DNA of 64,000 nt from an uncultured Nitrososphaerales archaeon (lineage in GTDB: Archaea; Thermoproteota; Nitrososphaeria; Nitrososphaerales; Nitrososphaeraceae), in assembly GCA_963713605.1 (NCBI GenBank), contig CAVQMO010000001.1, forward strand, positions 192,001 through 256,000, written 5' to 3'. The translations under genes were made by a program, and so were the position numbers. Under the pieces are notes generated by a model. The model had not been told where the DNA came from, ran no database searches, and saw only the letters and a list, made by a program, of their open reading frames with translations. This document shows, piece by piece, positions 1,761 to 16,182 of the stretch. Numbering within the stretch: position 1 is the stretch's first letter; the number at the start of each line of letters is the position of its first letter.

Positions 1761-2312
1761 CTATTTCTTTAGAAAGGATCCTAATTCTTTCATTCGTCCA
1801 GCCAGAAATCCCAATAAACAACCGTAGATAATATGAAATACCAATGAACCACCAATAATAACTGGAAACAACGATTGGAAGTGACTGGCAATATCATAGA
1901 TGTATTGATTTGGTGCCGAGTTGGAAAGCGAGTCAAGTCGAGGCTGTATTCCAAATGTGGTAACTGGAACAAATAATATTGCCCATAAAACGACTCCTAC
2001 TATTAGTCCAGTAATTATCCCATGATGATAGTCGTATGGCGCTATCCATCTCCAAAATGTTGATGCTTGTCCAAATATGTTTCCTGCTATGGTACCAGTT
2101 AACAAGTGAAAGCTAAATCCTACATATTGTGCAACTATCGGATCGTTAAAACCTAACGATATTCCGATCACAGCAAAGAATGTTCCAGGAGGAGTTCCTG
2201 AGATAAGGTCAACAACAACGAGGAGTCCTGAGATGGCCCATACAGCTATAAATCCCGCAAGTGTACAGTATGGAATATAGGCTCTTTGATCTACTCGCCA
2301 GCTCGCTTTCAA
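1761..2312 (-). CDS. hypothetical membrane protein (about 4 TM, His-containing helices)
   Basis: Four hydrophobic segments, with FHLLTG and FHIIYG in TM helices. Confidence 0.7.
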   Translation of the reverse strand: MKASWRVDQRAYIPYCTLAGFIAVWAISGLLVVVDLISGTPPGTFFAVIGISLGFNDPIVAQYVGFSFHLLTGTIAGNIFGQASTFWRWIAPYDYHHGIITGLIVGVVLWAILFVPVTTFGIQPRLDSLSNSAPNQYIYDIASHFQSLFPVIIGGSLVFHIIYGCLLGFLAGRMKELGSFLKK

Positions 2313-2511: not shown

Positions 2512-2534
2512 AGGCGCGGGGTGTGGGATTCGAA
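2512..2534 (-). repeat. att-like direct repeat of the tRNA-Ser 3' end
   Basis: aggcgcggggtgtgggattcgaa (2512-2534) vs aggcgcggggagtgggattcgaa (16096-16118): 22/23 identical; the flank cccaa.t.agg is also shared. Confidence 0.85.
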
Positions 2535-2743
2535 TCCCTTAGCCAAAGATGGGGATTCCATCTGATTCTGTATATTGCCAGAATGCTTTATCCCACTCCG
2601 TTTGCGAACGCCATACCCTTGCAATCAACGTCAAACATTGGTTACTGCATTTACGCATAGGCTCTTCAAGCGTTTGATTGAGTCACGGCTTATTATCCGT
2701 ATTTTTCCCCCAGATCAGACATAATTTCAACAAATTAGAGTAG

Positions 2744-2761
2744 AAAGGAAAATCTTATAAA
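2744..2761 (+). promoter_or_regulatory. BRE/TATA promoter candidate
   Basis: Purine-rich AAAGGAAAATC followed by TTATAAA (2755-2761), 30 nt before the ATG at 2785, as expected for an archaeal leaderless transcript. Confidence 0.55.
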
Positions 2762-2784
2762 TTGCGGTCTTGTACGTGACAATC

Positions 2785-2886
2785 ATGAACAATCTATTCA
2801 GTTTGCTAATAAACCTTGGAAGCCGGAGGATATCAGTGTGTACGAACAAACGCATTCCAGCTCATCCGGATTGCGGCCATAACTAA
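2785..2886 (+). CDS. small 33-aa peptide ORF (MNNLFSLLINLGSRRISVCTNKRIPAHPDCGHN)
   Basis: Read directly: ATG 2785 to TAA 2884-2886; TATA box upstream; GGTG SD-like motif before the next gene's TTG at 2901; below the ORF-track size cutoff. Confidence 0.5.
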   Translation: MNNLFSLLINLGSRRISVCTNKRIPAHPDCGHN

Positions 2887-2900
2887 GGTGTTATCCTAAA

Positions 2901-3671
2901 TTGAGTATTCAAAGGTACGGATTATGGGACGACATTCTGGGCCATAGCTATGGTTTTTGGTCAAGACAATGGTTGAAATGGGCTATATCTCCTCCTGTGA
3001 GCGGTGTTGTGAATGAGCATCCGCTGAAGGAATTTGATACGGGGGCTCACGTCGTAGTTCACGGAACACTTCCTGCAGGTGAAAATTCAGATAGAGTATC
3101 TTTTTCGGTGGATATTGGGAAGGTGACGAAGGTGAGCCAGCGCTTGATAATATCATTAAAGGCGGATATTATTTTAATCAAGCTAGAATATTTCGCAAAG
3201 TCGAGGACTTTCCAGGTAACGTTCCAATTCTCATCAATGCAGTATCCTCTGCAATTTCTCCAGAAGAGCATCCCGATGCTTTCGGACGAGCACTTTCCCT
3301 TGAAGACATTGAATATGCGGGCAAAAAATGTAATAGACCAATCTTATTCTGCGGTAAAGATTAAGTCCCCCAATGGTGAAATGCATGAATTTCATTCTAA
3401 TAAAGGAACACTCGATCGGGTTAGATACCCTGTTCATAATCCAACTGTAAGGGCAGGTATGTGGCATCACTTTGGAGAGAATAAGGAGATACACGCCGCC
3501 TAGATGGTTATTGGCTATTCCTGCGTGGATTAGAACCAGATAAGTCATCCCCATATACAATACAAATTGACTCTTACTCGCCTTTTTTTGATGTGTACTC
3601 ACGCTCACAATAGTCCGCATGATCCCTTTCAGGTTCATGTCACATACGAGCTTTATGTGCCTCAATCATGA
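2901..3671 (+). CDS. unknown-function protein, divergent paralog 1 of the 'W..WW.W / DGYW.FL' family (frameshift near 3500)
   Basis: GHSYGFWSRQWLKWAISPP N-terminus; after a frame change at ~3500 it reads DGYWLFLRGLEP...FQVHVTYELYVPQS*, matching the C-terminus of 3684-4328. Confidence 0.65.
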
Positions 3672-3683
3672 ATTGGAATTAGA

Positions 3684-4328
3684 TTGTTTCAGGAGAATTT
3701 TAATCAATACGAACGCTCTCTATTCTACTGCCGCAAGGAGCATCCATTTGGAGTCTCGTGGGAGGAATGGTGCTGCAGGTGGTGGAAATGGGCACTATCC
3801 ATTCCTAGGGAATCGAACCCAGGGATAGATAGCACTGGCGAAAAATATTTCCTAAATCCGCAATGGGAATCAGTGATATTTCTTGTAGGCACGTTTGGCG
3901 GTAGGGCTCAACGCTCCTATAAGATACCCGGAGGAAAATCAATTTTCTTGCCTATTATTAATTTCGAGACTTCCTTTAATGAAGAACCATATTTGCAGAG
4001 TGAGGAAGACTTGTTGAGTAGAGTGAGACGCGATATCGATGACATTATTCGTAGGGAGCTGATAATCGATGGAAATAGAGTTGTTAACTTGGATGCCTTC
4101 CGGATCACTACCGATGTGTTTGATCTAATCCTTCCTGAGGATAATGTATTTGGAGTTAAGCCTGGATTCACGCGTGCTGCTTCGGACGGTTACTGGGCCT
4201 TTCTCAAACCCCTTCCGTTGGGCCAGCATACAATTCGAGCTTCCGGTGCATGTTCATCCGGAAAAACTACCGTCGATATCACTTGGCAAATAACCGTAGA
4301 ACAGGATCAGACATCAAACTACCGATAA
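3684..4328 (+). CDS. unknown-function protein, paralog 2 (intact, no signal peptide)
   Basis: PFGVSWEEWCCRWWKWALSIP..SNPGIDSTG, VIFLVGTFGG, IPGGKSIFLPIIN, ASDGYWAFLKPLPLGQHTI. Confidence 0.85.
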   Translation: MFQENFNQYERSLFYCRKEHPFGVSWEEWCCRWWKWALSIPRESNPGIDSTGEKYFLNPQWESVIFLVGTFGGRAQRSYKIPGGKSIFLPIINFETSFNEEPYLQSEEDLLSRVRRDIDDIIRRELIIDGNRVVNLDAFRITTDVFDLILPEDNVFGVKPGFTRAASDGYWAFLKPLPLGQHTIRASGACSSGKTTVDITWQITVEQDQTSNYR

Positions 4329-4390
4329 ACGATAATGATGGAAACTTGGAATTCAGGTTTCCTGGCATACGTAATAAAATGTATTTTCCT

Positions 4391-5172
4391 CTAGGGGCGT
4401 ACGGTAAGATGGTACCTGCCATCTTGTGCGAATGTATTTGGACCGGTTGCAGTGACGTCTACGCTAGTGCCCTTAAAATGAATTTCATGCTTCCCTGGAG
4501 GTAGCGGCTTTAGAAATACATACTGTCCATTACCTGCTCCTTCGTAACTCTCCTGCGTCGACGCCAAATATGTTATTCTCTGGTAGAGTAAAGTTAAACA
4601 CAGGTGTAGCTACACGATAACTTTCAACAGGTCTCCCATCCACACTGGCTTCCATTTGGGTAACTTTGTCTTGGAAGTCTTTCGCGCATTCAATCATATC
4701 CTCCTTAGTACTTAAATTAGGAAATTCGGCTGGTGAACAAAAGGAATTGAGAATCGGAAAGAATAGTGATGCATTCGAAGGAACAGGTACAAGCTCTTTC
4801 AACAGATCCAGCAAATGTACCTGCTAGAAACCAGACTGGTCCCTGCTGTTTTTGAGCACAATAATCTCCTGTCGTATCTATTACAGGATTCGTACTTTCA
4901 GGAATTGAATACGCCCAGAGCCACCATAATTCCCCCCATTTACCGTAACTGTTTCCAAAGGGTTCAGACGATTGGGGATATACTTGGGGACCGGCAACAA
5001 CACCACTTTCGTTTTGACCCATTGCAATGGTATCTGGGGTCATTGTGAATAATGGCGCCGAGACGCACAAGAGTGTAACAAGTAAAAGTCTACTTAAATC
5101 AGGATCCGTCCATGCTAGTATCAAAGCTCGCCTGTCAAGGATGGGATGGGTTTCTATTATATAAATTCTCAC
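4391..5172 (-). CDS. unknown-function exported protein, paralog 3 (at least two frameshifts)
   Basis: Hydrophobic signal/anchor LLLVTLLCVSAPLF; PFGNSYGKWGELWWLWAYSIPESTNPVIDTTGDYC, PVWFLAGT; continues in 4530-4814, then GNGQYVFLKPLPPGKHEIHF...YHLTVRP* ending at 4391. Confidence 0.75.
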
Positions 5173-5261
5173 ATTCTATTTCAATTCGGCAAAAAGATTA
5201 TTAATTATTGTGCCATCTTGAACTATAGAGGTCGGTTCATGATGCGACGGACGACTGGAAA

Positions 5262-6622
5262 ATGTATTTGCTAGATAGATTGTTTGAGGACCGGTGCATC
5301 TACGCTTCTTTTATAATATTGTTAGCTGTTTTATTCGTTGATGTTTCTCTCATAAAAATCTTGAATCTGCTTTTTGTCCAAAGTGATAATTTTTGGCGGG
5401 TAAATCTCTTCTCGACGATATCAATATTGTATGTTGTACTGATGGTGTTCATCATTACTGGTAGTCTTAAAAATGGCTGGTGGTCAGCAGTGAAGATTGG
5501 AAGTAAGAATATGCAAAAGCCACTGATAATAACTCAACCTGTCCTACTATCACTCATAGCTATAGTATTAATGCAATTGCTATCTCTCCATCACTACGGT
5601 ACAATCCTCCTAATTATTATTATTGCTACTAGCTACGTTTTGGGGATTTATATTTTGGTTGTTCTTACTAGGCACTTTGTAATTTGGTCCAAATCTAACA
5701 GGACTAACAAAGTCGTCTTAGGGTACAGTGTTTCCTTCATAGTGATCTCTGCAAACCTAATCTTAACTCTGAGCGTTGTAATGATGGCTTCTTTTGGCTG
5801 GAGTTCTACTTCTCCTTCATTTATTGGAACCACTGCCATATACATTAAAAGCGGTTCCCCTCTCTGAGCTAGTAACTTTTGCTGAATTAGTCACCTCGAT
5901 AATTGCGTTTGGAATTACATGGTAATCAACCACTCTACTCCTGTCTAACTATTCGGAAAAGATCGGGAAGAAGTCATACTGGATATTCCTTTCCATTCCG
6001 TTGGCATATTTTATGGGTCAGTATATTGTTTTCTATTTCAGTTTATTTACGCCTCTGTTTACAATTGATCCGTTTTTCTATGGGACGCTCATAACTTTGC
6101 TCTTTGCTCTGAGTAAACCAGTCGGAGGAATCCTTTTTGGCATAAGCTTTCTGGACTGTAGCAAAAAAAATACCGTCTAGCTATAGAGAACGGAGGTATC
6201 TACTCATTTCAGCCTTTGGTTTTATTCTATTGTTCGTGTCCAGTCAGGCTATCCTGTTAATAAATATCCCATTTCCACCTTTCGGTTTGATTGCATCTTC
6301 TACAATAGGATTTGCATGTTACTTAGTTTCGGTGGGCATTTACTCCTCGGCGATCTCAGTAGCCCATGACGCATCATTACGACAACGTGTTAGAAAAATG
6401 GCAACTCCAGGACTTAACTTTCTGGACAGCATTGGAACCGCTGAAATGCAAAGTTATCTTGAGCAAAGAGTTGTTGAACTGGTGGAACGAAATAGAGATA
6501 TTTTGGAGGAAGGAACCAGGGATGAGTCCGACCTGAGTGATGAAGAAATAAAGAAATATGTTGAGGAGGTCCTGGGAGAAGTTAAGGCCAGCAGAGAGCG
6601 TAAAGAAGGAAAAGGATGGTGA
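5262..6622 (+). pseudogene. polytopic membrane protein (~450 aa, about 10-11 TM) with charged C-terminal helical tail; interrupted
   Basis: ORFs 5262-5867 and 6230-6622 are linked by a middle frame (YSEKIGKKSYWIFLSIPLAYF...SKPVGGILFG) containing one in-frame TAA and two frameshifts; C-terminus SSAISVAHDASLR...LDSIGTAEM...EEIKKYVEEVL. Confidence 0.7.
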
Positions 6623-7278
6623 GCGACAATAAATGCAATATGCAATGTGGACATGTAACTTCTTCTATAGTCGATTTGAGGATTCCTGTTCTCTTCTTGA
6701 GCTCCGTAATATCGGGAATATGATCTCCACGAGTCTTTATCCAAGTGAACCTCACCTCCAGTGGTACCGTTTTGAATATGGTCTAGGTCCTAATGCTAAA
6801 AGGCTATGGGAAAAATAGAGATGCCAAGGCCTTGTACCTGCTCTTGAATGAATAACTATGAAAAGAAAGTTTGTTGAAAGCGCTTCAGTAAGAGCCCTAG
6901 GGTAATTTTACTGCAATTGGAGTCATAACTGTATGACCATGAAAATAGTGCAGGATCCATGATAATCTTTCGTATAATATCCGAATCTTCAACAAAATCA
7001 GGTACCGCCGGCAGTATCATTGTCTCAGTAAACTTTGCAATCATACCTAAACTAGTCAAGATTGCATGATATCCGTGGGGAGGAAGAAAAGACGAGTATA
7101 CTGATCTGCCTTTTCACAATCCTACTTGCTTATCTTTTCTCAATATCATAATTACTATTCATTTATTTGTTCCACACTAGGAAAATGAGTGTGTGAATAT
7201 CATAATTATGAATTAAAAGTAATTAAATTGGAACTAGAAATAATAATAGGGAATGGAAAGAGGCATCGACATAACTGT

Positions 7279-9076
7279 ATGAGACCAGTTTTGCTTACCG
7301 TGGATGATAATCCGCAGGTGGTTCAAGCTATTAAGCGGGATTTAAGGCATCAATATGGCAAGCGCTTTCGTATTCTTAAAGCTGAATCTGGTCAAAAAGC
7401 TCTTGAATTAGTGAAGCAATTGAAACTGCGAAATGAGACCGTGGCATTGCTCTTGGTAGACCAGCGGATGCCTCAGATGTCTGGAGTAGAATTACTGGAG
7501 CAGTCTATTGACATTTTTCCAGAGGCTAAGCGCGTGTTACTTACGGCGTATGCAGATACTGAGGCTGCAATAAGATCTATCAACAAAGCCAAAATTGATT
7601 ACTACCTAATGAAACCGTGGGACCCTCCTGAAGAACATTTGTATCCAGTACTCGATGATTTATTAGACGATTGGTGGGCTTCTTTTAAGCCTCCATATGA
7701 GGGCATCAAGGTTATAGGAATAAGATGGTCGCCAAGATCATATGAAGTAAAACACTTTCTAGCGAGAAATGGTATACCTTATCAATGGCTAGATATAGAA
7801 TCTGATGAAGGTCGCCATTTGGTTTCTTTTGTCGCTTCGACTAGTAAGGGAGAGGAATCTGGTCAAATTTCCAACACCTCCATTTCTGATATTAATCATA
7901 ACCAGCATGAAAACGACACTGATAATACAGCGTCCTTGATTAGATCACCTTCATTAACACTGTTGCCTTCTTCCTTAAAACTGCCACTTGTTATCTTTCC
8001 TGATGGCTCATATATGGATGAGCCATCTAATTCAGGGCTTGCAGAAAAAATTGGTCTAAAGACTCAAGCACAGATGCCTTTCTATGATTTGATAATAATA
8101 GGAGCAGGACCAGCCGGATTGGCGGCAGCAGTATATGGCGCGTCAGAGGGTCTCAGGTACATTAATAATTGAAAGACAAGCACCGGGCGGACAGGCAGCC
8201 ATGAGCTCTAATATTGAAAATTACCTCGGCTTTCCTTCTGGTCTAACTGGCAGCAATCTCGCTAGACGGGCGGTTGCGCAAGCAATCCGATTTGGCGTTG
8301 AGATTTTGACCCCCCAGGAAGTTATGGGTTTACGAATCGATGGCCCATATAGAATAGTTCAATTAAAGGATGGTAAAGAGATAAGTTGCCATGCCCTTCT
8401 TATTGCGTGTGGGGTATCGTATCGTAAGTTAGAAGATATAAAGGGAATAGATAAACTAACTGGAGCTGGTGTATATTACGGTGCCTCTATGGTAGAGGCG
8501 TTATCGTCTCAGAATGAAGATGTCTATATGGTTGGAGGGGCAAACTCTGCAGGTCAGAGGGCAGTTCATTTTTCTAAATATGCGAGAACAGTAACACTTG
8601 TAGTTCGTGGAGATTCTTTAACCAAAAGTATGTCATACTATCTTGTTAATCAAATAAATAGGACATCTAACATAAAAGTATTATTAAACTCAAAAGTTGT
8701 GGAAGTACAGGGCGGAGATCGGCTTCAATTCGTTACCATATTAAATACCCACACAGGAGAGCAGCATACTGTGGATTGTTCCGTGCTCTACATATTTATT
8801 GGTGCCGTACCACATACGGATGCTCTTGCTGGATTAGTAGAACGAGATGCAAATGGCTTTATATTGACAGGTCAGGATTTAATACAGGAGGATGGGCATA
8901 AACGTCCTAGGGGCTGGTACCTGGATCGGTCCCCATTTTTACTTGAGACAAACTTGCCTGGTATATTTGCTGCTGGAGATGTGCGTCATGGCTCTACGAA
9001 AAGAGTGGCTACAGGTGTTGGGGAAGGGTCTCTAGCTGTTCAACTAATACATCAATACCTAAAGAGCGTCAAATGA
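7279..9076 (+). CDS. response-regulator receiver / glutaredoxin-like / thioredoxin-reductase-family (FAD/NAD(P)) fusion; frameshift near 8157
   Basis: REC motifs VDD, DQRMP, LLTAYA, MKPW; FLARNGIPYQWLD; GAGPAGLAAAVY; after the frame change PGGQA...IENYLGFP, VGGANSAGQ, GIFAAGDVR; likely start ATG 7279. Confidence 0.9.
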
Positions 9077-9166
9077 TGTCAAATAATGGATTGCGTTTGC
9101 TTTGATCCTATGACACAGAGATGAAAATACTAATAACCTAGAAATTAGTGATATCAACAGTAGGCC

Positions 9167-10753
9167 ATGACCATCAGTTCTAATAGCAACAACATTACTC
9201 ATGATCAAGAATCTCTACTTCATCAAATACGGCTCTTCTCGGGGCTGAACGAACAGGAGTTAAATTCATTAGAAAAAGGGCAAGAGGTGTGGTTTAACAT
9301 AGGCGATAAAATACTTGCTGAGGGCCAGCATGATGCTTTTTATGTAGTTGTAGAAGGAAAGGTCGACGTCATATTAAGAGATGGGGCCAAAGAATCAGTT
9401 CTCTCCACCTATGACGCTGGAGATCATTTTGGAGAACTTCCGATCATTCTTGGATGGTCAGATCACAAATGTGCTGCTTTTGCTGCTAAAAAAAGTCGCC
9501 TGCTCAAATGGGATAAAGACGAATTCTGGCGAATGGTATACAGTTCTCCTTCTTTGACAAGACAAATACTGCATTCAATGGCGCAACTTCTTAAAACATT
9601 GGAGACAGTCTTACAACATAACCAGAAGCTCATTGCACTTGGTGGACTAGCTGCTGGTCTTGCTCATGAATTGAATAATCCCGCAGCAGCTCCCAATAGA
9701 TCCGTAACACAATTATCTGAATCCATTCAAGAGTGGAGATCTCTATCACGGAAGCTGAATGGGAAAGAAGGTATAACTCCTGCACAATGGTCATATGTTT
9801 CTAAATTAAGAGATAATATTCGAAATCCTGATCCGCCTTCTGCTGCCAGACAAACTCTTGGTGTTGTTTCTGCTTCTACTGATACTGACACAGATGATCC
9901 TATAAAGCAAAGCGAAATTGAGGAAGAGATCATCGACTGGCTTGGATCTCACGGTATTGGTGATGGATGGAAAATAGCATCTGATCTAATCGCCGCAGGA
10001 ATCACTATAAATGATTTGAATGAGATCACCAAAACTATCAACTCAACTCAATCACCAAAAGGGCGCAAGATGACAAATAATGATATGGTGGATAAAAATC
10101 TTAAGGACATCCTAAGCTGGCTTACAACTACGACAAGAGTAGATCAATTACTTTATGAAATCAAGAGCAGTACCACACGCATTAGTGATTTAGTTTCGGC
10201 TGTGAAATCATATTCATATATGGATCAGGCTCCTCTTCAGGAGGTCGATATCCATAAGGGAATAGAAAGCACATTGACAATTCTGCAATATAAAATAAGG
10301 AAAGCTGACATAACTATAAGTCGAGAATATGATTCTAATTTGCCTCATGTCAATGCTTTTGGAAACGAGCTAAATCAAGTTTGGACAAATTTAATAGATA
10401 ATGCTATTGACGGCATAGGAGAGCACGGAACTATATCAATTCGTACCAAGAACGAGGGGAATGATCATATACTTGTAGAAATAGCGGATAATGGAAGTCA
10501 AGGTATCCCAGAAAACCTAAAATCACGAATTTTTGAGCCATTCTTCACTACTAAGGATCTGGACAAAGGAACTGGTCTTGGATTGAGTATAAGCCACAGG
10601 ATTGTGACAGAGACACATAGAGGGGATATTCGTGTATACTCTCGCCCAGGAGAGACCCGTTTTCAGGTCCTCCTGCCTATCATCTATAATGAGGGACTAG
10701 AGAAAAGGTATTGGTCTTGGATTAAACCATTGGATAACCAAGAAGAAGCGTAA
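9167..10753 (+). CDS. cNMP-binding-domain sensor histidine kinase (cytoplasmic)
   Basis: N-terminal cNMP fold (FYVVVEGKV, GDHFGE); H-box AAGLAHELNNP; N-box NQVWTNLIDNA; F/G2 box IFEPFFTTK..GTGLGL. Confidence 0.92.
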   Translation: MTISSNSNNITHDQESLLHQIRLFSGLNEQELNSLEKGQEVWFNIGDKILAEGQHDAFYVVVEGKVDVILRDGAKESVLSTYDAGDHFGELPIILGWSDHKCAAFAAKKSRLLKWDKDEFWRMVYSSPSLTRQILHSMAQLLKTLETVLQHNQKLIALGGLAAGLAHELNNPAAAPNRSVTQLSESIQEWRSLSRKLNGKEGITPAQWSYVSKLRDNIRNPDPPSAARQTLGVVSASTDTDTDDPIKQSEIEEEIIDWLGSHGIGDGWKIASDLIAAGITINDLNEITKTINSTQSPKGRKMTNNDMVDKNLKDILSWLTTTTRVDQLLYEIKSSTTRISDLVSAVKSYSYMDQAPLQEVDIHKGIESTLTILQYKIRKADITISREYDSNLPHVNAFGNELNQVWTNLIDNAIDGIGEHGTISIRTKNEGNDHILVEIADNGSQGIPENLKSRIFEPFFTTKDLDKGTGLGLSISHRIVTETHRGDIRVYSRPGETRFQVLLPIIYNEGLEKRYWSWIKPLDNQEEA

Positions 10754-10908: not shown

Positions 10909-11248
10909 TCACTTTTCTTTCATAATATTATGAAATGGCTTGTAGCCAAGAAAGAATGACAGCCATATCGGCACTTTTATCTTGTCTTCTTTAGTCGAAT
11001 CCTTGAGATCAATCTCGGTTTGTTCGGCCAGAAATGTACTCACAGATAATGTCACAATTCTCTGGATTCGTTTCAATTAACCTCTTTAGTGCCTTATCAT
11101 AGTAGGGTTTGGAGTAGCCGTCTGTGGTGATGTCTATCTTTCTTATGAGTTCATGCAAGGCAGTTTCTTCGTGAGATGCTCTTGTTAGTATAGATGCCAA
11201 ATTACAATCACATTGCAGAGCTAAAAAGCATATTGTTAGAATCTCCAA
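10909..11248 (-). pseudogene. integrase (tyrosine recombinase) N-terminal remnant, copy 2
   Basis: SKPYYDKALKRL..NPENCDIICEYI, then after a frameshift LAEQTEIDLKDSTKEDKIKVPIWLSFFLG; clearly paralogous to 15743-16030. The integrase identity is recalled from Nitrososphaeraceae integrase N-termini; no catalytic domain is present. Confidence 0.6.
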
Positions 11249-11260
11249 GCAAAGGATTCG
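11219..11260 (-). repeat. eroded third copy of the tRNA-flank/att region
   Basis: agctaaaaagcatattgttagaatctccaagcaaaggattcg aligns with 16062-16116 agctgaaaaagcattctgttggaatacccaagtaagg[cgcggggagtgg]gattcg, with an internal deletion. Confidence 0.6.
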
Positions 11261-12470
11261 CAGCAGCCATAATAGTTTTAATCGGCGGGTGGCTTGTTAT
11301 TGTTAATTTGGATGATAACTTGCCTATTTCCATGAGTGCGGACTAATCAGCTGACCGACCTACGTTCTGATTCTCCTGGGAGAGGCTGTCCTCTACTACC
11401 ATCACTTTTGTCCAGGATCCAAATCAACCCATCTCGAGTCTATATAAAAATCTAAGAGCTCTGAAAAGAGTTTCCCATCGTATCTCAACAGTTTACATTT
11501 TTCCAAACCTAAATGTGACCTAACTGCACTATTTCGACATCAATCCCATCATCCAAATCTTTCAATGCCTTCATTACATGGTGTTCGGCGTCCTCTGTTA
11601 CGACTTCTGACTTTGATGAAAACTTTGCGATGATGAAATATGTATGACGTTTCTGACCGTGTCCGTTCATCTACTAGCTTTACCACACGCTATCCAAATA
11701 ATTTGCGCACAGAGGTGTCCTTATCTCCAGAGGAATGGTAAGGCGTGTCCTTTTCTATCGCTGACTGACCTTACTCTTGACATAGTCTATGCTTTTTGTA
11801 AGTTGTCTTTCAACTAAAAAATTTCTGGAAATTTTTCGTAGAATTGTATTCATGTTCCGATACAGTGCTCAAACTAGCAATTATATCTTCAGGAAAAATT
11901 GCAGAATTTCTAGAATGAACTTTGGATATTCCTCCCACATACATTTCATGGATTTTCACCATTCGAATTACATACAGCAATGATCGGATAATGCTATGTG
12001 TATCTACCAACAGATAATTGCACATTCAATGTGCTATTTTATTTAGTTTGAAAATTAAAAATATTCATAAGATAATATGGAGATCGTCCCAGTCAGCTTC
12101 CGTCTAGAATAGACATAGGGAAACGGAAATCTCCAGCGAACCCACGCTTTAATGTCCTCCACCTGGCTTATCAGGGTCCACTCACTATCATCATCATCAT
12201 CATCATCGCTTCAAAGGCTCACAGCATCTTTGCGGAATGCAGTGGTAATAGACTAGCAACAAACATAGCATGATGATATTCTAGACTAGTTTAGACTGGC
12301 TCTTTACAAGTTCAAGCCTCCAAAGAATCTCTGACTAAAATATGAAACTTGAACTCGCCTTATTACTTTGTACAATCAATACAACCACCAGGAGTTACAA
12401 ATTCCAGATATTTTATATTCTTCTTCAATCAAATCTTATGGATGCAATATTGTTGTTTCATCTATTTAGG

Positions 12471-13994
12471 ATGCAGAAGTTAAGGAGAACACACTCTAAT
12501 CACTCTGGCATTATTCTTATGCTTGTTGCTGCGTTCTTGATTGTATCGTCTAGCACGTATCCAACCATTATGTCTGGAAATCAGAATAGAGAAATGAGTA
12601 TCATGGCAGTAGCACTTGCGCAAGTACTAGATCAAAAAGATAGAGTAGCAAATACTAGAAATGATCATTCTAATATTCTTTCTTCACAATCACCTACACC
12701 AACAACTACTGCAAGATTGAGCGACAGATTTGGTTCGCTTGATCCAGCAATAACAGCATGGGGTAATAATGTATATGCGGCATGGCAGCAGAGCACTGAC
12801 ATAGTATATCAAAGAAGTACAAATGGAGGCTCTGAATTTGGCGGAGAAATTAATCTAAGTAATAATGCTGGTTTTTCACAGAATCCATCTATAGCTGCGT
12901 CAGGAAATAATGTCTACGTAGTGTGGGCTGACAGTACACCTGGAAACAATGAGATCCTGTACAGAAGATCTACAAGCGGTGGAGCTATGTTCAGTAGTAC
13001 AGTTAATTTGAGCAATAATTTAGGAAATTCAGTTACCCCATCTATAGCTGCGTCAGGAAATAATGTCTACGTAGTGTGGGCTGACAGTACACCTGGAAAC
13101 AATGAGATCCTGTACAGAAGATCTACAAGCGGTGGAGCTATGTTCAGTGGTACAGTTAATTTGAGCAATAATTTAGGAAATTCAGTTACCCCATCTATAG
13201 CTGCGTCAGGAAATAATGTCTACGTAGTGTGGGCTGACAGTACACCTGGAAACAATGAGATCCTGTACAGAAGATCTACAAGCGGTGGAGCTATGTTCAT
13301 TAATACAGTTAATTTGAGCAATAATTCAGGAAGTTCATTTAGGCCATCTATAGCCGCATCCGGAAATAATAACGTACATGTTGTTTGGTTCGATAGAACA
13401 ACAGGAAACTATGATATCTTATACAGAAGATCTACAAGCGGTGGAGCTATGTTCATTAATACAGTTAATTTGAGCAATAATTCAGGAAGTTCATTTAGAC
13501 CCTCTATAGCTGCATCAGGAAATAATGTATATGTTGTATGGCAGGATTTGACACCTGCAAATAATGAAATATTCTATAGAAGAAGTGTAAATGGTGGAGC
13601 TAATTTCGGTGGTACAACTAACCTAAGCAGCAATGCGGGAAATTCAATTAATCCATATATTTCTGCATCAGGAAACAATGTATATATAACATGGACTGAT
13701 TCAACACCTGGAAATAATGAGATCCTGTACAGAAGATCACTGAATGTTGGAGCTAGCTTTAGCAGTACAATTAGTCTTAGCAATAGCGGGGGAATTTCAC
13801 AATTTCCAGCCATATCTACATCGAGCAATGAAAATGTAATGTGGGATGCTGGTAGTGACATATCTGGATTCAGTGGAATTTTTTCTAGTTTTACTGACGA
13901 GGACGGGGCTAACTTTAGCGGTCCCATCTACCTAGGCGTCAATACATTGGGTAGAGCTGGAGGTGTAATTGCAGGGATAACATCATCATACTAG
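12471..13994 (+). CDS. exported BNR/Asp-box-like (sialidase-family) repeat beta-propeller protein
   Basis: N-terminal hydrophobic helix; about 7 repeats of PSIAASGNNVYVVW.D...GNNEILYRRST.GGA.F...VNLSNN; likely start ATG 12471 rather than 12342. Confidence 0.85.
   Translation: MQKLRRTHSNHSGIILMLVAAFLIVSSSTYPTIMSGNQNREMSIMAVALAQVLDQKDRVANTRNDHSNILSSQSPTPTTTARLSDRFGSLDPAITAWGNNVYAAWQQSTDIVYQRSTNGGSEFGGEINLSNNAGFSQNPSIAASGNNVYVVWADSTPGNNEILYRRSTSGGAMFSSTVNLSNNLGNSVTPSIAASGNNVYVVWADSTPGNNEILYRRSTSGGAMFSGTVNLSNNLGNSVTPSIAASGNNVYVVWADSTPGNNEILYRRSTSGGAMFINTVNLSNNSGSSFRPSIAASGNNNVHVVWFDRTTGNYDILYRRSTSGGAMFINTVNLSNNSGSSFRPSIAASGNNVYVVWQDLTPANNEIFYRRSVNGGANFGGTTNLSSNAGNSINPYISASGNNVYITWTDSTPGNNEILYRRSLNVGASFSSTISLSNSGGISQFPAISTSSNENVMWDAGSDISGFSGIFSSFTDEDGANFSGPIYLGVNTLGRAGGVIAGITSSY
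12885..13805 (+). repeat. intragenic 153-bp tandem repeat (51 aa)
   Basis: Unit starts at 12885, 13038, 13191, 13344, 13500 (+3 nt) and 13653; the first three units are nearly identical in DNA. Confidence 0.95.
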
Positions 13995-15742: not shown

Positions 15743-16030
15743 CTATGTTTTCATGCACGTCAATAATACTTTTGAAATATTACTTCCTAGAAAGGCTGAA
15801 AGCCATATTAGCACTTTTATCTTGCCCTCTTTAGTCGAATCCTTAAGATTTATTTCGCTTTGCTCGGCCAGGATGTAATCGCAGATATAGTTACAATTCT
15901 CTGGGTTTATTGCAAACATCCTCTCCAAGGCCTTGCGGAAGTAGGGTTTAGAGCAACTGTGTGTGATGGCATGTACTTTCATCTTGAGTTCATATAAGTC
16001 AGTTCCTTTGTTATCAGCTATGGTTTGCAT
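15743..16030 (-). pseudogene. integrase (tyrosine recombinase) N-terminal remnant, copy 1
   Basis: SKPYFRKALERM..NPENCNYICDYILAEQSEINLKDSTKEGKIKVLIWLS; starts ~70 bp beyond the tRNA-Ser 3' end in the same orientation; truncated. Confidence 0.65.
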
Positions 16031-16098
16031 AAATCCCGATCAAAGCTACCGTTGCGCTGATAGCTGAAAAAGCATTCTGTTGGAATACCCAAGTAAGG

Positions 16099-16182
16099 CG
16101 CGGGGAGTGGGATTCGAACCCACGAGTTCTTGCGAACATGGGATTAGCAATCCCACGCCCTACCAGGCTAGGCGACCCCCGC
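16099..16182 (-). tRNA. tRNA-Ser(GCT)
   Basis: Reverse complement GCGGGGGTCGCCTAGCCTGGTAGGGCG-TGGGA TTGCTAA TCCCA-long variable arm-GTGGGTTCGAATCCCAC-TCCCCGC G. Confidence 0.97.

Follow-up and report, generated by a model that had tools for sequence, protein, structure and literature searches.

We describe a peptide-encoding gene cassette in a 64,000-nucleotide stretch of DNA (the window: positions 192,001 to 256,000, forward strand, of contig CAVQMO010000001.1, assembly GCA_963713605.1) from an uncultured archaeon of the family Nitrososphaeraceae, order Nitrososphaerales, and on balance we believe, by a modest margin of confidence, that the cassette is a system that makes and senses a peptide signal. 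That reading is attractive because the peptide of the family is apparently tailored, because one putative binding fold is found on both sides of the membrane, and because the membrane protein of the cassette belongs to a kinase-type sensor domain. The genome of the window, G000, amounts to 4.09 Mb in 15 contigs and is 87% complete. Its cassette is a minimal version, consisting of the peptide, two cytoplasmic paralogs, a secreted paralog and a receptor-like protein, without YcaO, and is laid out as follows.

2742..2762, + strand: promoter-like element, a purine run (2742-2752) and then a TATA-like box (2755-2762), recognised from the sequence and from the spacing seen in the family.
2785..2886, + strand: predicted precursor peptide of 33 amino acids, MNNLFSLLINLGSRRISVCTNKRIPAHPDCGHN, with a hydrophobic leader, a variable core and a C-terminal His-Asn.
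2901..3671, + strand: very divergent cytoplasmic paralog of a Trp-rich domain, recognised by motif matches of a hidden Markov model (HMM) and by hhalign.
3684..4328, + strand: intact cytoplasmic paralog of 214 amino acids, of the G-x-C-x-x-G subfamily (Cys190), an open frame with a confident structure model.
4391..5172, - strand: secreted-type paralog, convergent with the preceding genes, with a hydrophobic N-terminus and the Cys pair of its family.
5262..6622, + strand: receptor-like membrane protein of ten helices with a conserved helical cytoplasmic tail and no kinase domain.

The TATA-like box lies 23-30 nt upstream of the ATG at 2785 and the purine-rich run resembles a BRE (transcription factor B recognition element), a spacing from which we read the peptide gene as probably leaderless. 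The secreted-type gene and the membrane gene stand head-to-head. Intact frames are confined to 2785-2886 and 3684-4328: three of the four large genes are broken, with seven breaks in 3.9 kb, namely a TAG (3501-3503) in 2901-3671, whose frame also changes near 3501 and near 3583-3589, two frame changes near 4786 and 4545 in 4391-5172, and frame changes near 5860 and 6144 together with an in-frame TAA at 5923-5925 in 5262-6622. An earlier note, made from the window alone, had already pointed to the 33-residue open reading frame (ORF) behind a TATA box, and purine run, box and ORF are indeed all present. The same note saw two paralogs behind it, of which 3684-4328 is intact and 2901-3671 is broken and only a distant member; a third, convergent paralog bearing a signal peptide and paired head-to-head with the membrane gene, an arrangement that holds for a gene whose frame changes twice; and a membrane protein of about 450 residues with 10-11 transmembrane helices, which becomes ten helices and a helical tail without kinase in a model of an intact relative, the gene in the window being broken.

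The peptide belongs to a conserved, unannotated family of 28-40-residue peptides, each with a hydrophobic leader, a variable core, a C-terminal His-Asn or His-Gln and its own TATA promoter. Unbiased clustering of 2,671 intergenic small ORFs returned recurring peptides with these ends, and small ORFs that read His-Asn/Gln directly before the stop number 72 of 5,610 in 131 archaeal loci, where about 21 are expected (three places entered this count twice, and some metagenome loci are near-identical), as against 4 in 48 bacterial and methanogen loci, where 3.2 are expected and there is thus no excess; genome-wide they number 79 of 26,777. A profile HMM was built from 60 of the 72 peptides, eight having been dropped by eye as unlike the others and four as identical. 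When 121,226 segments of its own genome are ranked by this model, made from other loci, the window peptide comes third (E = 0.0023), or ninth once the model omits the last three residues, and rank 1 is taken by the peptide of a second cassette in the same genome. A TATA-like box occurs in 31 of 61 peptide upstream regions and in 7 of 61 control stretches, with a run of A at -36 to -32. Differences among 15 long-form peptide genes are biased to the third codon position (1356/1097/2543 by codon position); eight short-form genes show a slight third-position bias only (211/143/233).

This peptide recurs beside both protein families. By the profile it is found in 50 of the 58 multi-paralog loci (at least 6 kb, two or more paralogs), a set on which the profile was partly trained, in 3 of 12 single-paralog loci, and in none of 23 short receptor-centred and 48 other loci; out of sample, among 10 newly found loci, nine peptides lie beside module genes and nine end in His-Asn/Gln. 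The family is present in 45 of 121 Nitrososphaeraceae genomes and 15 of 18 genera (E 0.05), and at E 0.001 the profile finds no member in another 200 genomes of the phylum. There is, as a rule, one precursor gene per cassette. Intact cassettes are seen in G014, whose genome is a single contig (locus L048), and in Candidatus Nitrosocosmicus sp. FF01 (L111). His stands at position -2 in all 62 peptides, partly by selection, and Gly at -3 in 25; ends of this kind may resemble those of inteins and cyclic-imide degrons. None of 56 peptides has a Pfam or NCBIfam match, BLAST with the window peptide alone finds no homologue in 246 loci, and this peptide joined no cluster of small ORFs, so that its membership is visible only by the C-terminal count and the profile.

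The Cys pair that the earlier note pointed out in the peptide turns out to be incidental. It is present in 6 of 62 peptides (any Cys in 10 of 62), a two-Cys ORF of 30 residues arises by chance in 9% of resampled 260-nt stretches, and small ORFs with two Cys stand upstream of 21 of 133 family genes and of 16 of 146 other genes, which is no enrichment. A definition of the peptide by its Cys pair was dropped because the pair is neither enriched nor conserved; what is conserved, and sets the ORF apart from a chance one, is the leader and the His-Asn end. We also considered the micro-ORF as the frameshifted start of the first paralog, another frame resembling the N-terminus of a paralog: the resemblance is non-significant, and the conserved His-Asn-stop rules this origin out.

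Two further observations concern peptides elsewhere in G000. The second cassette (G000:C1:899086-905986) encodes a Dyp-type peroxidase, a receptor, one secreted and three cytoplasmic paralogs and, at 905083-905172 (- strand), a peptide that ends in Gly-Gly-His-Asn. There are also orphan ORFs of 34-43 residues with the same leader and no cassette nearby, at C3 ~26748 (-), C3 ~373732 (+), C12 ~14237 (-) and C1 ~34337 (+); they carry an A-x-A site like those cut by signal peptidase, end for instance in Trp-Asn, Tyr-Asn or Met-Gln, and are possibly members of a wider class of secreted micro-peptides.

The enzymes that accompany the cassette at other loci point to chemical tailoring of the peptide. 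In 107 loci picked by the soluble domain, YcaO is a partner in 14, a Dyp-type peroxidase in 13 and a hydrolase-phosphoribosyltransferase fusion in 24. Wherever YcaO and a peptide occur together (19 loci, 18 distinct places), the peptide is of the long form, 38-40 residues with T-P-G-(D/E/N)-(V/T)-T, and YcaO occurs in none of the 46 short-form loci; five long-form loci lack it. YcaO itself is present in 80 of 81 genomes, with the core copy beside TfuA in the four genomes in which both positions were seen, and the extra copies lie in cassettes (7 of 7 examined), as do the long Dyp genes (9 of 9 examined, with three short high-scoring Dyps and four partial matches left out). The YcaO of the cassettes is closest to the McrA-thioamidation type TIGR03266 (E = 4e-79, below the cut-off of that profile), and the Dyp proteins have a Pfam match and largely retain the family motifs around the distal Asp and Arg and the proximal His: G-[FY]-x-D-G in 12 of 17, and the His and Arg patterns in 16 of 17 each. 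A module with YcaO, Dyp-type peroxidase or the hydrolase-phosphoribosyltransferase fusion would also appear to be a peptide-maturation cluster, comparable to those of peptides that ribosomes make and that are modified after translation (RiPPs). The core YcaO of G000 lies at C1:811168-812779; it is also found in 79 of 80 other family genomes, beside TfuA where checked. An M4 metalloprotease with an emfourin inhibitor recurs with a papain-like gene beside some cassettes, at L042, L053, L058 and L060, and at G000:C1:894279-898793; these neighbours may have a processing role or may share an insertion hot spot.

The soluble Trp-rich domain supplies the partners of the peptide on both sides of the membrane. 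The product of 3684-4328 has no Pfam, NCBIfam or PDB match, either alone or as a profile of 73 sequences, and its model (predicted local distance difference test score, pLDDT, 94) is a helix-flanked beta-sandwich for which a fold search returned an Ig-like background only (best Z 5.8, TM-score at most 0.31), a result that does not by itself show a new fold. The family has 9,414 representatives at 50% identity and no solved relative. It is found in 19 of 24 Nitrososphaeraceae genomes, with 16 loci in G000, and in none of 16 other families of the order; many bacteria and methanogens encode it as secreted singles or tandem repeats. Among 63 long matches scanned, it is fused to dCache, Dyp peroxidase, pterin carbinolamine dehydratase (3), EAD8 and Ig/HYR arrays. 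The archaeal members fall into three groups: a secreted type, whose Cys pair is invariant in 50 head-to-head-type partners; a cytoplasmic type, whose G-x-C-x-x-G is invariant in 16 close relatives of 3684-4328; and diverse other cytoplasmic types. Across 19 cassettes the Cys-type paralog has the highest median similarity (0.36), followed by the receptor (0.19) and the secreted type (0.16). We regard 3684-4328 as a candidate maturase or peptide binder and 4391-5172 as a candidate extracellular co-receptor. The divergent 2901-3671 enters the family through two motifs that an HMM picks out across three frames (E = 8.5e-5 and 4.5e-5) and an hhalign probability of 62%; a search for its orthologues found none.

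The membrane protein is likewise without a Pfam, NCBIfam or PDB family match, and the HisKA_7TM profile (PF16927) hits 0 of 14 members at E 0.01. Its family occurs in 23 of 31 Nitrososphaeraceae genomes and in 0 of 119 others of the order. In the model of an intact relative (pLDDT 73.5), ten membrane helices precede a helical tail, and helices 4-10 superpose on G-protein-coupled receptors (GPCRs) and rhodopsins, best on Ste2 (VIA Z 11.9, root-mean-square deviation 4.5, 233 residues aligned), with 49 of the top 50 VIA matches being GPCRs or rhodopsins; this is suggestive, not decisive, of a seven-transmembrane (7TM) GPCR/rhodopsin-like core. The nearest Pfam-bearing Atlas cluster is HisKA_7TM (0.82), which serves as a lead only. 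The whole membrane unit (about 450 residues) aligns to the N-terminus of a 1,035-residue kinase (E = 1.2e-56), and all five long forms carry HisKA and HATPase; by these alignments the family is a histidine-kinase input domain in its paralogs, the window gene not being one of these kinases. Elsewhere the membrane protein is fused to a cytoplasmic soluble domain (P0282/P0300 and L152, which share 28% identity). Where a locus was chosen for its soluble domain, 48 of the 56 membrane genes with room for it have a head-to-head family gene, 42 of them scored as the signal-peptide type. Co-folding of receptor and secreted paralog from L042 gave a score of 0.60 (best control 0.00), with runs agreeing in at least 58% of contacts and a partner pLDDT of at least 83; this lends weak support to the pairing, given a benchmark in which 116 of the 157 solved pairs and 2 of the 215 mismatched ones reached the mark, 18 of those solved pairs and both mismatches scoring at or below 0.60.

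Two side observations concern this family. Kinases of about 1,000 residues (loci L247, L248, L249, L250, L251 and L252) have some 300 residues without Pfam match between the membrane unit and HisKA, and the L111 receptor ends, judged by eye, in part of that region without a kinase. A third pair of receptor and secreted paralog in G000 lies at C1:185332-187453, and no peptide was found there.

Consider, then, how such a cassette might work. The cytoplasmic paralogs would bind the precursor by its His-Asn/Gln end, with the optional enzymes helping in its maturation, and a C-terminal piece would leave the cell. Outside, the secreted paralog would capture the peptide and dock on the 7TM core of the membrane protein, whose helical tail, having no kinase, would relay the signal either to a cytoplasmic paralog, to which it is fused in some genomes, or to those members of the family that carry a kinase. 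Fast divergence of core, secreted paralog and receptor would yield strain-specific channels, as in quorum-sensing pherotypes. We infer a signalling role for the product, and not one as metal ligand or weapon. The earlier note had likewise read the locus as a peptide sensing system, and the linkage to small ORFs that it sought across genomes, the absence of an enzymatic assignment or characterised function for either family, and the kinase-input paralogs all accord with it; the module differs from that picture in often adding maturation enzymes. A bolder form of the proposal, to which we would give only a small chance, is a peptide-hormone-like system with maturation at the His-Asn/Gln end (for example, cyclisation through the Asn/Gln side chain by the Cys-type paralog), a Trp-rich co-receptor on a GPCR-fold receptor, kinase-free relay by domain paralogs, and strain-specific channels.

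Several results weigh against a make-and-sense system. The leader is not a clean Sec signal: 58 of 60 peptides have a charged residue within positions 5-18, and the leader is weakly amphipathic (its moment of 0.49, against 0.42 for shuffled versions, is the higher in 39 of 60). The recurring core of the cassette includes no exporter, no transcription factor or response regulator and no member of a known peptidase class. Export and output of the cassette are thus unexplained, since no exporter, kinase or regulator recurs and the leader is atypical. Across the 19 cassettes, core similarity tracks the Cys-type paralog (rho 0.40) more than the secreted paralog (0.28) or the receptor (0.12), a pattern more in keeping with maturation than with receptor specificity. 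Many bacteria have the soluble domain without receptor or peptide, and it is therefore not peptide-specific by nature. The structural match of the membrane protein, at Z 11.9, falls short of about 13, a value that chance alone can give between helical bundles, and Foldseek with the membrane model finds no match at E 0.001. Most membrane-family genes lie outside the cassette, with 3 of 23 loci in G000 head-to-head with a paralog, and the genome-wide link between membrane gene and paralog is partial (1 of 5 in G014; 4 of 6 within 2 kb in G024). Because some loci are kin or nearly identical, all counts are inflated, and the window's own copy is broken in the assembly.

This last point raises a question separate from function, namely whether the copy in the window is a decaying pseudogene cluster. 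We find that doubtful, if well short of negligible. The local density of breaks is high (seven in 3.9 kb, where 21 kb of conserved genes show about 10 frame changes), one of them is an in-frame stop, and the first paralog has no orthologue. However, conserved genes of the assembly are also broken, in 9 of 17 tested and 7 of 13 outside the cassette families, aconitase and a radical-SAM gene among them; no other 4-mer lies beside 1-base indels as often as AGCT (10 of 100 sites, against a median of 2.1%, some of the comparison genomes being error-prone); several assembly indels are an extra base within AGCT; and AGCT or GTAC-like sites contain or adjoin four of the window breaks, while promoter, peptide and Cys-type paralog are intact. 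Assembly error is thus likelier than decay, local density and in-frame stop notwithstanding.

Among functional alternatives, copper scavenging survives best, improbable as we judge it: the x-x-His-Asn/Gln peptide, optionally thioamidated or oxidised, would bind copper, the secreted paralog would capture it, and the membrane protein would import or sense it, much as in methanobactin systems. N-terminal x-x-His motifs bind Cu(II), and ammonia-oxidising archaea depend on copper enzymes. The penultimate His and frequent preceding Gly of the peptides would suit such a ligand, as would the YcaO and peroxidase partners. However, an MbnB-family gene is absent from all five genomes searched, the cores are hypervariable, several different cassettes coexist in a genome, and the membrane family is a kinase input domain that resembles 7TM receptors rather than transporters. 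We think it quite improbable, too, that the peptide stays inside, where it would either regulate the receptor as a small membrane-associated factor or serve the cytoplasmic paralogs as a co-substrate, with the secreted paralog sensing an unrelated small molecule. In favour of this are the lack of a recurring exporter and the charged, non-canonical leader; core similarity tracks the cytoplasmic Cys-type paralog; and receptor and secreted paralog occur without peptide in 9 of 12 single-paralog loci, as do bacterial members of the domain. Yet one domain found on either side of the membrane suggests a shared ligand, and the covariation with YcaO implies deliberate tailoring. Least probable of all is an antagonistic RiPP, in which the peptide is a weapon, the paralogs serve maturation and immunity, and the receptor pair senses or neutralises it: the variable core, optional tailoring enzymes, patchy spread (45 of 121 family genomes), possible integrated island and single EAD8 fusion fit, but the core is very short, no ABC exporter recurs, the core proteins have no PADLOC match (nor have the core parts any in Rfam), and the receptor is a signalling input domain.

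In the context of known systems, the make-and-sense cassette would work like the peptide quorum sensing of Gram-positive bacteria (agrBDCA and comQXPA), in which a short precursor with a leader and variable core is encoded with a dedicated maturation protein and a polytopic sensor, and in which divergence is cassette-wise; a short precursor, a putative maturation protein, a polytopic membrane sensor domain and cassette-wise divergence are found here too. It differs from agr in that AgrB (PF04647) is absent from the five genomes searched, one of them complete, in that the precursor ends at His-Asn/Gln and has no conserved ring-forming Cys/Ser or charged tail, and in having a separate secreted co-receptor with the fold of the cytoplasmic proteins; and it differs from both in that its receptors, of about 450 residues, lack a kinase, with kinase and response regulator not among the core neighbours. 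Methanobactin clusters share a small precursor and an extracellular binding protein with it, along with the peroxidase and Trp-rich partner; MbnB (PF05114) is absent from the five genomes searched, no Cys core is conserved, and the families are unrelated.

YcaO-dependent RiPP clusters, as treated in the available part of PMC8120280, place YcaO beside a precursor with a matching segment, which holds for the family and not for the window copy; here, unlike there, YcaO is optional (14 of 107 loci) and a receptor pair is present. TfuA-YcaO thioamitides differ from the cassette in that TfuA is single-copy in 5 of 5 genomes, beside a separate core YcaO and outside the cassette. HisKA_7TM-type archaeal kinases likewise join a 7TM-like input domain to HisKA and HATPase, as paralogs of our membrane protein do (available parts of PMC5847659, PMC6944256 and PMC13581589); the membrane family differs in having three extra N-terminal helices, in standing mostly alone, and in its restriction to one family among those searched. 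In the parts available, archaeal 7TM kinases are noted (PMC13581589), thaumarchaeal TfuA clusters and archaeal YcaO RiPPs are mentioned in general terms (PMC8120280, PMC12144867), the listings of archaeal sensor domains do not contain the membrane family (PMC5847659, PMC6944256), and a 2025 paper, which notes how sparse knowledge of archaeal signalling is, lists only three earlier archaeal quorum-sensing examples, none with an identified peptide signal (PMC12240190). No description of the cassette was found in full-text literature, a scope that mostly leaves aside subscription journals and supplementary family tables, which may list its proteins. We infer its function, and regard the cassette as previously undescribed, new in its parts and layout.

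The cassette defines three unnamed families, namely a precursor peptide that escapes ordinary gene calling, a soluble domain and a lineage-specific 7TM-like sensor domain. They offer a candidate signal, maturases and receptor for dominant soil ammonia oxidisers, with ligands short enough to synthesise, and from the covariation of YcaO and peptide one can predict on which substrate, and where in it, an orphan YcaO acts. Should aggregation, dormancy or nitrification be under its control, the signal would provide a handle on soil nitrogen cycling, and if the peptide-hormone-like form is true, soil nitrifiers would have strain-specific communication channels.

The surroundings of the cassette in the window add the following feature.

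2512..2534, - strand: repeat of the tRNA-Ser(GCT) 3' end (tRNA at 16097-16182), identical at 22 of 23 nt and forming a direct repeat with 16096-16118.

The repeat marks the possible left boundary, at 2512-2534, of an integrated island of 13.6 kb in which the cassette would lie. Near 11000-11300 (-) and 15750-16039 (-) are two gene fragments, similar to each other, that look integrase-like but match none of four integrases from the same genome, and a Pfam search of the window gave no integrase hit. Directly 3' of the receptor gene, 7189-10753 encodes a receiver-thioredoxin reductase (in two frames) and then a histidine kinase that binds cyclic nucleotide monophosphates, a pair that is not a recurring neighbour of the cassette. 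Further along, 12342-13994 encodes a secreted-type protein of 550 residues, without a confident Pfam match, that contains several near-identical 51-residue repeats, and on the other side 1761-2312 (-) encodes a small polytopic membrane protein, without a family match, that has four paralogs elsewhere in the genome.

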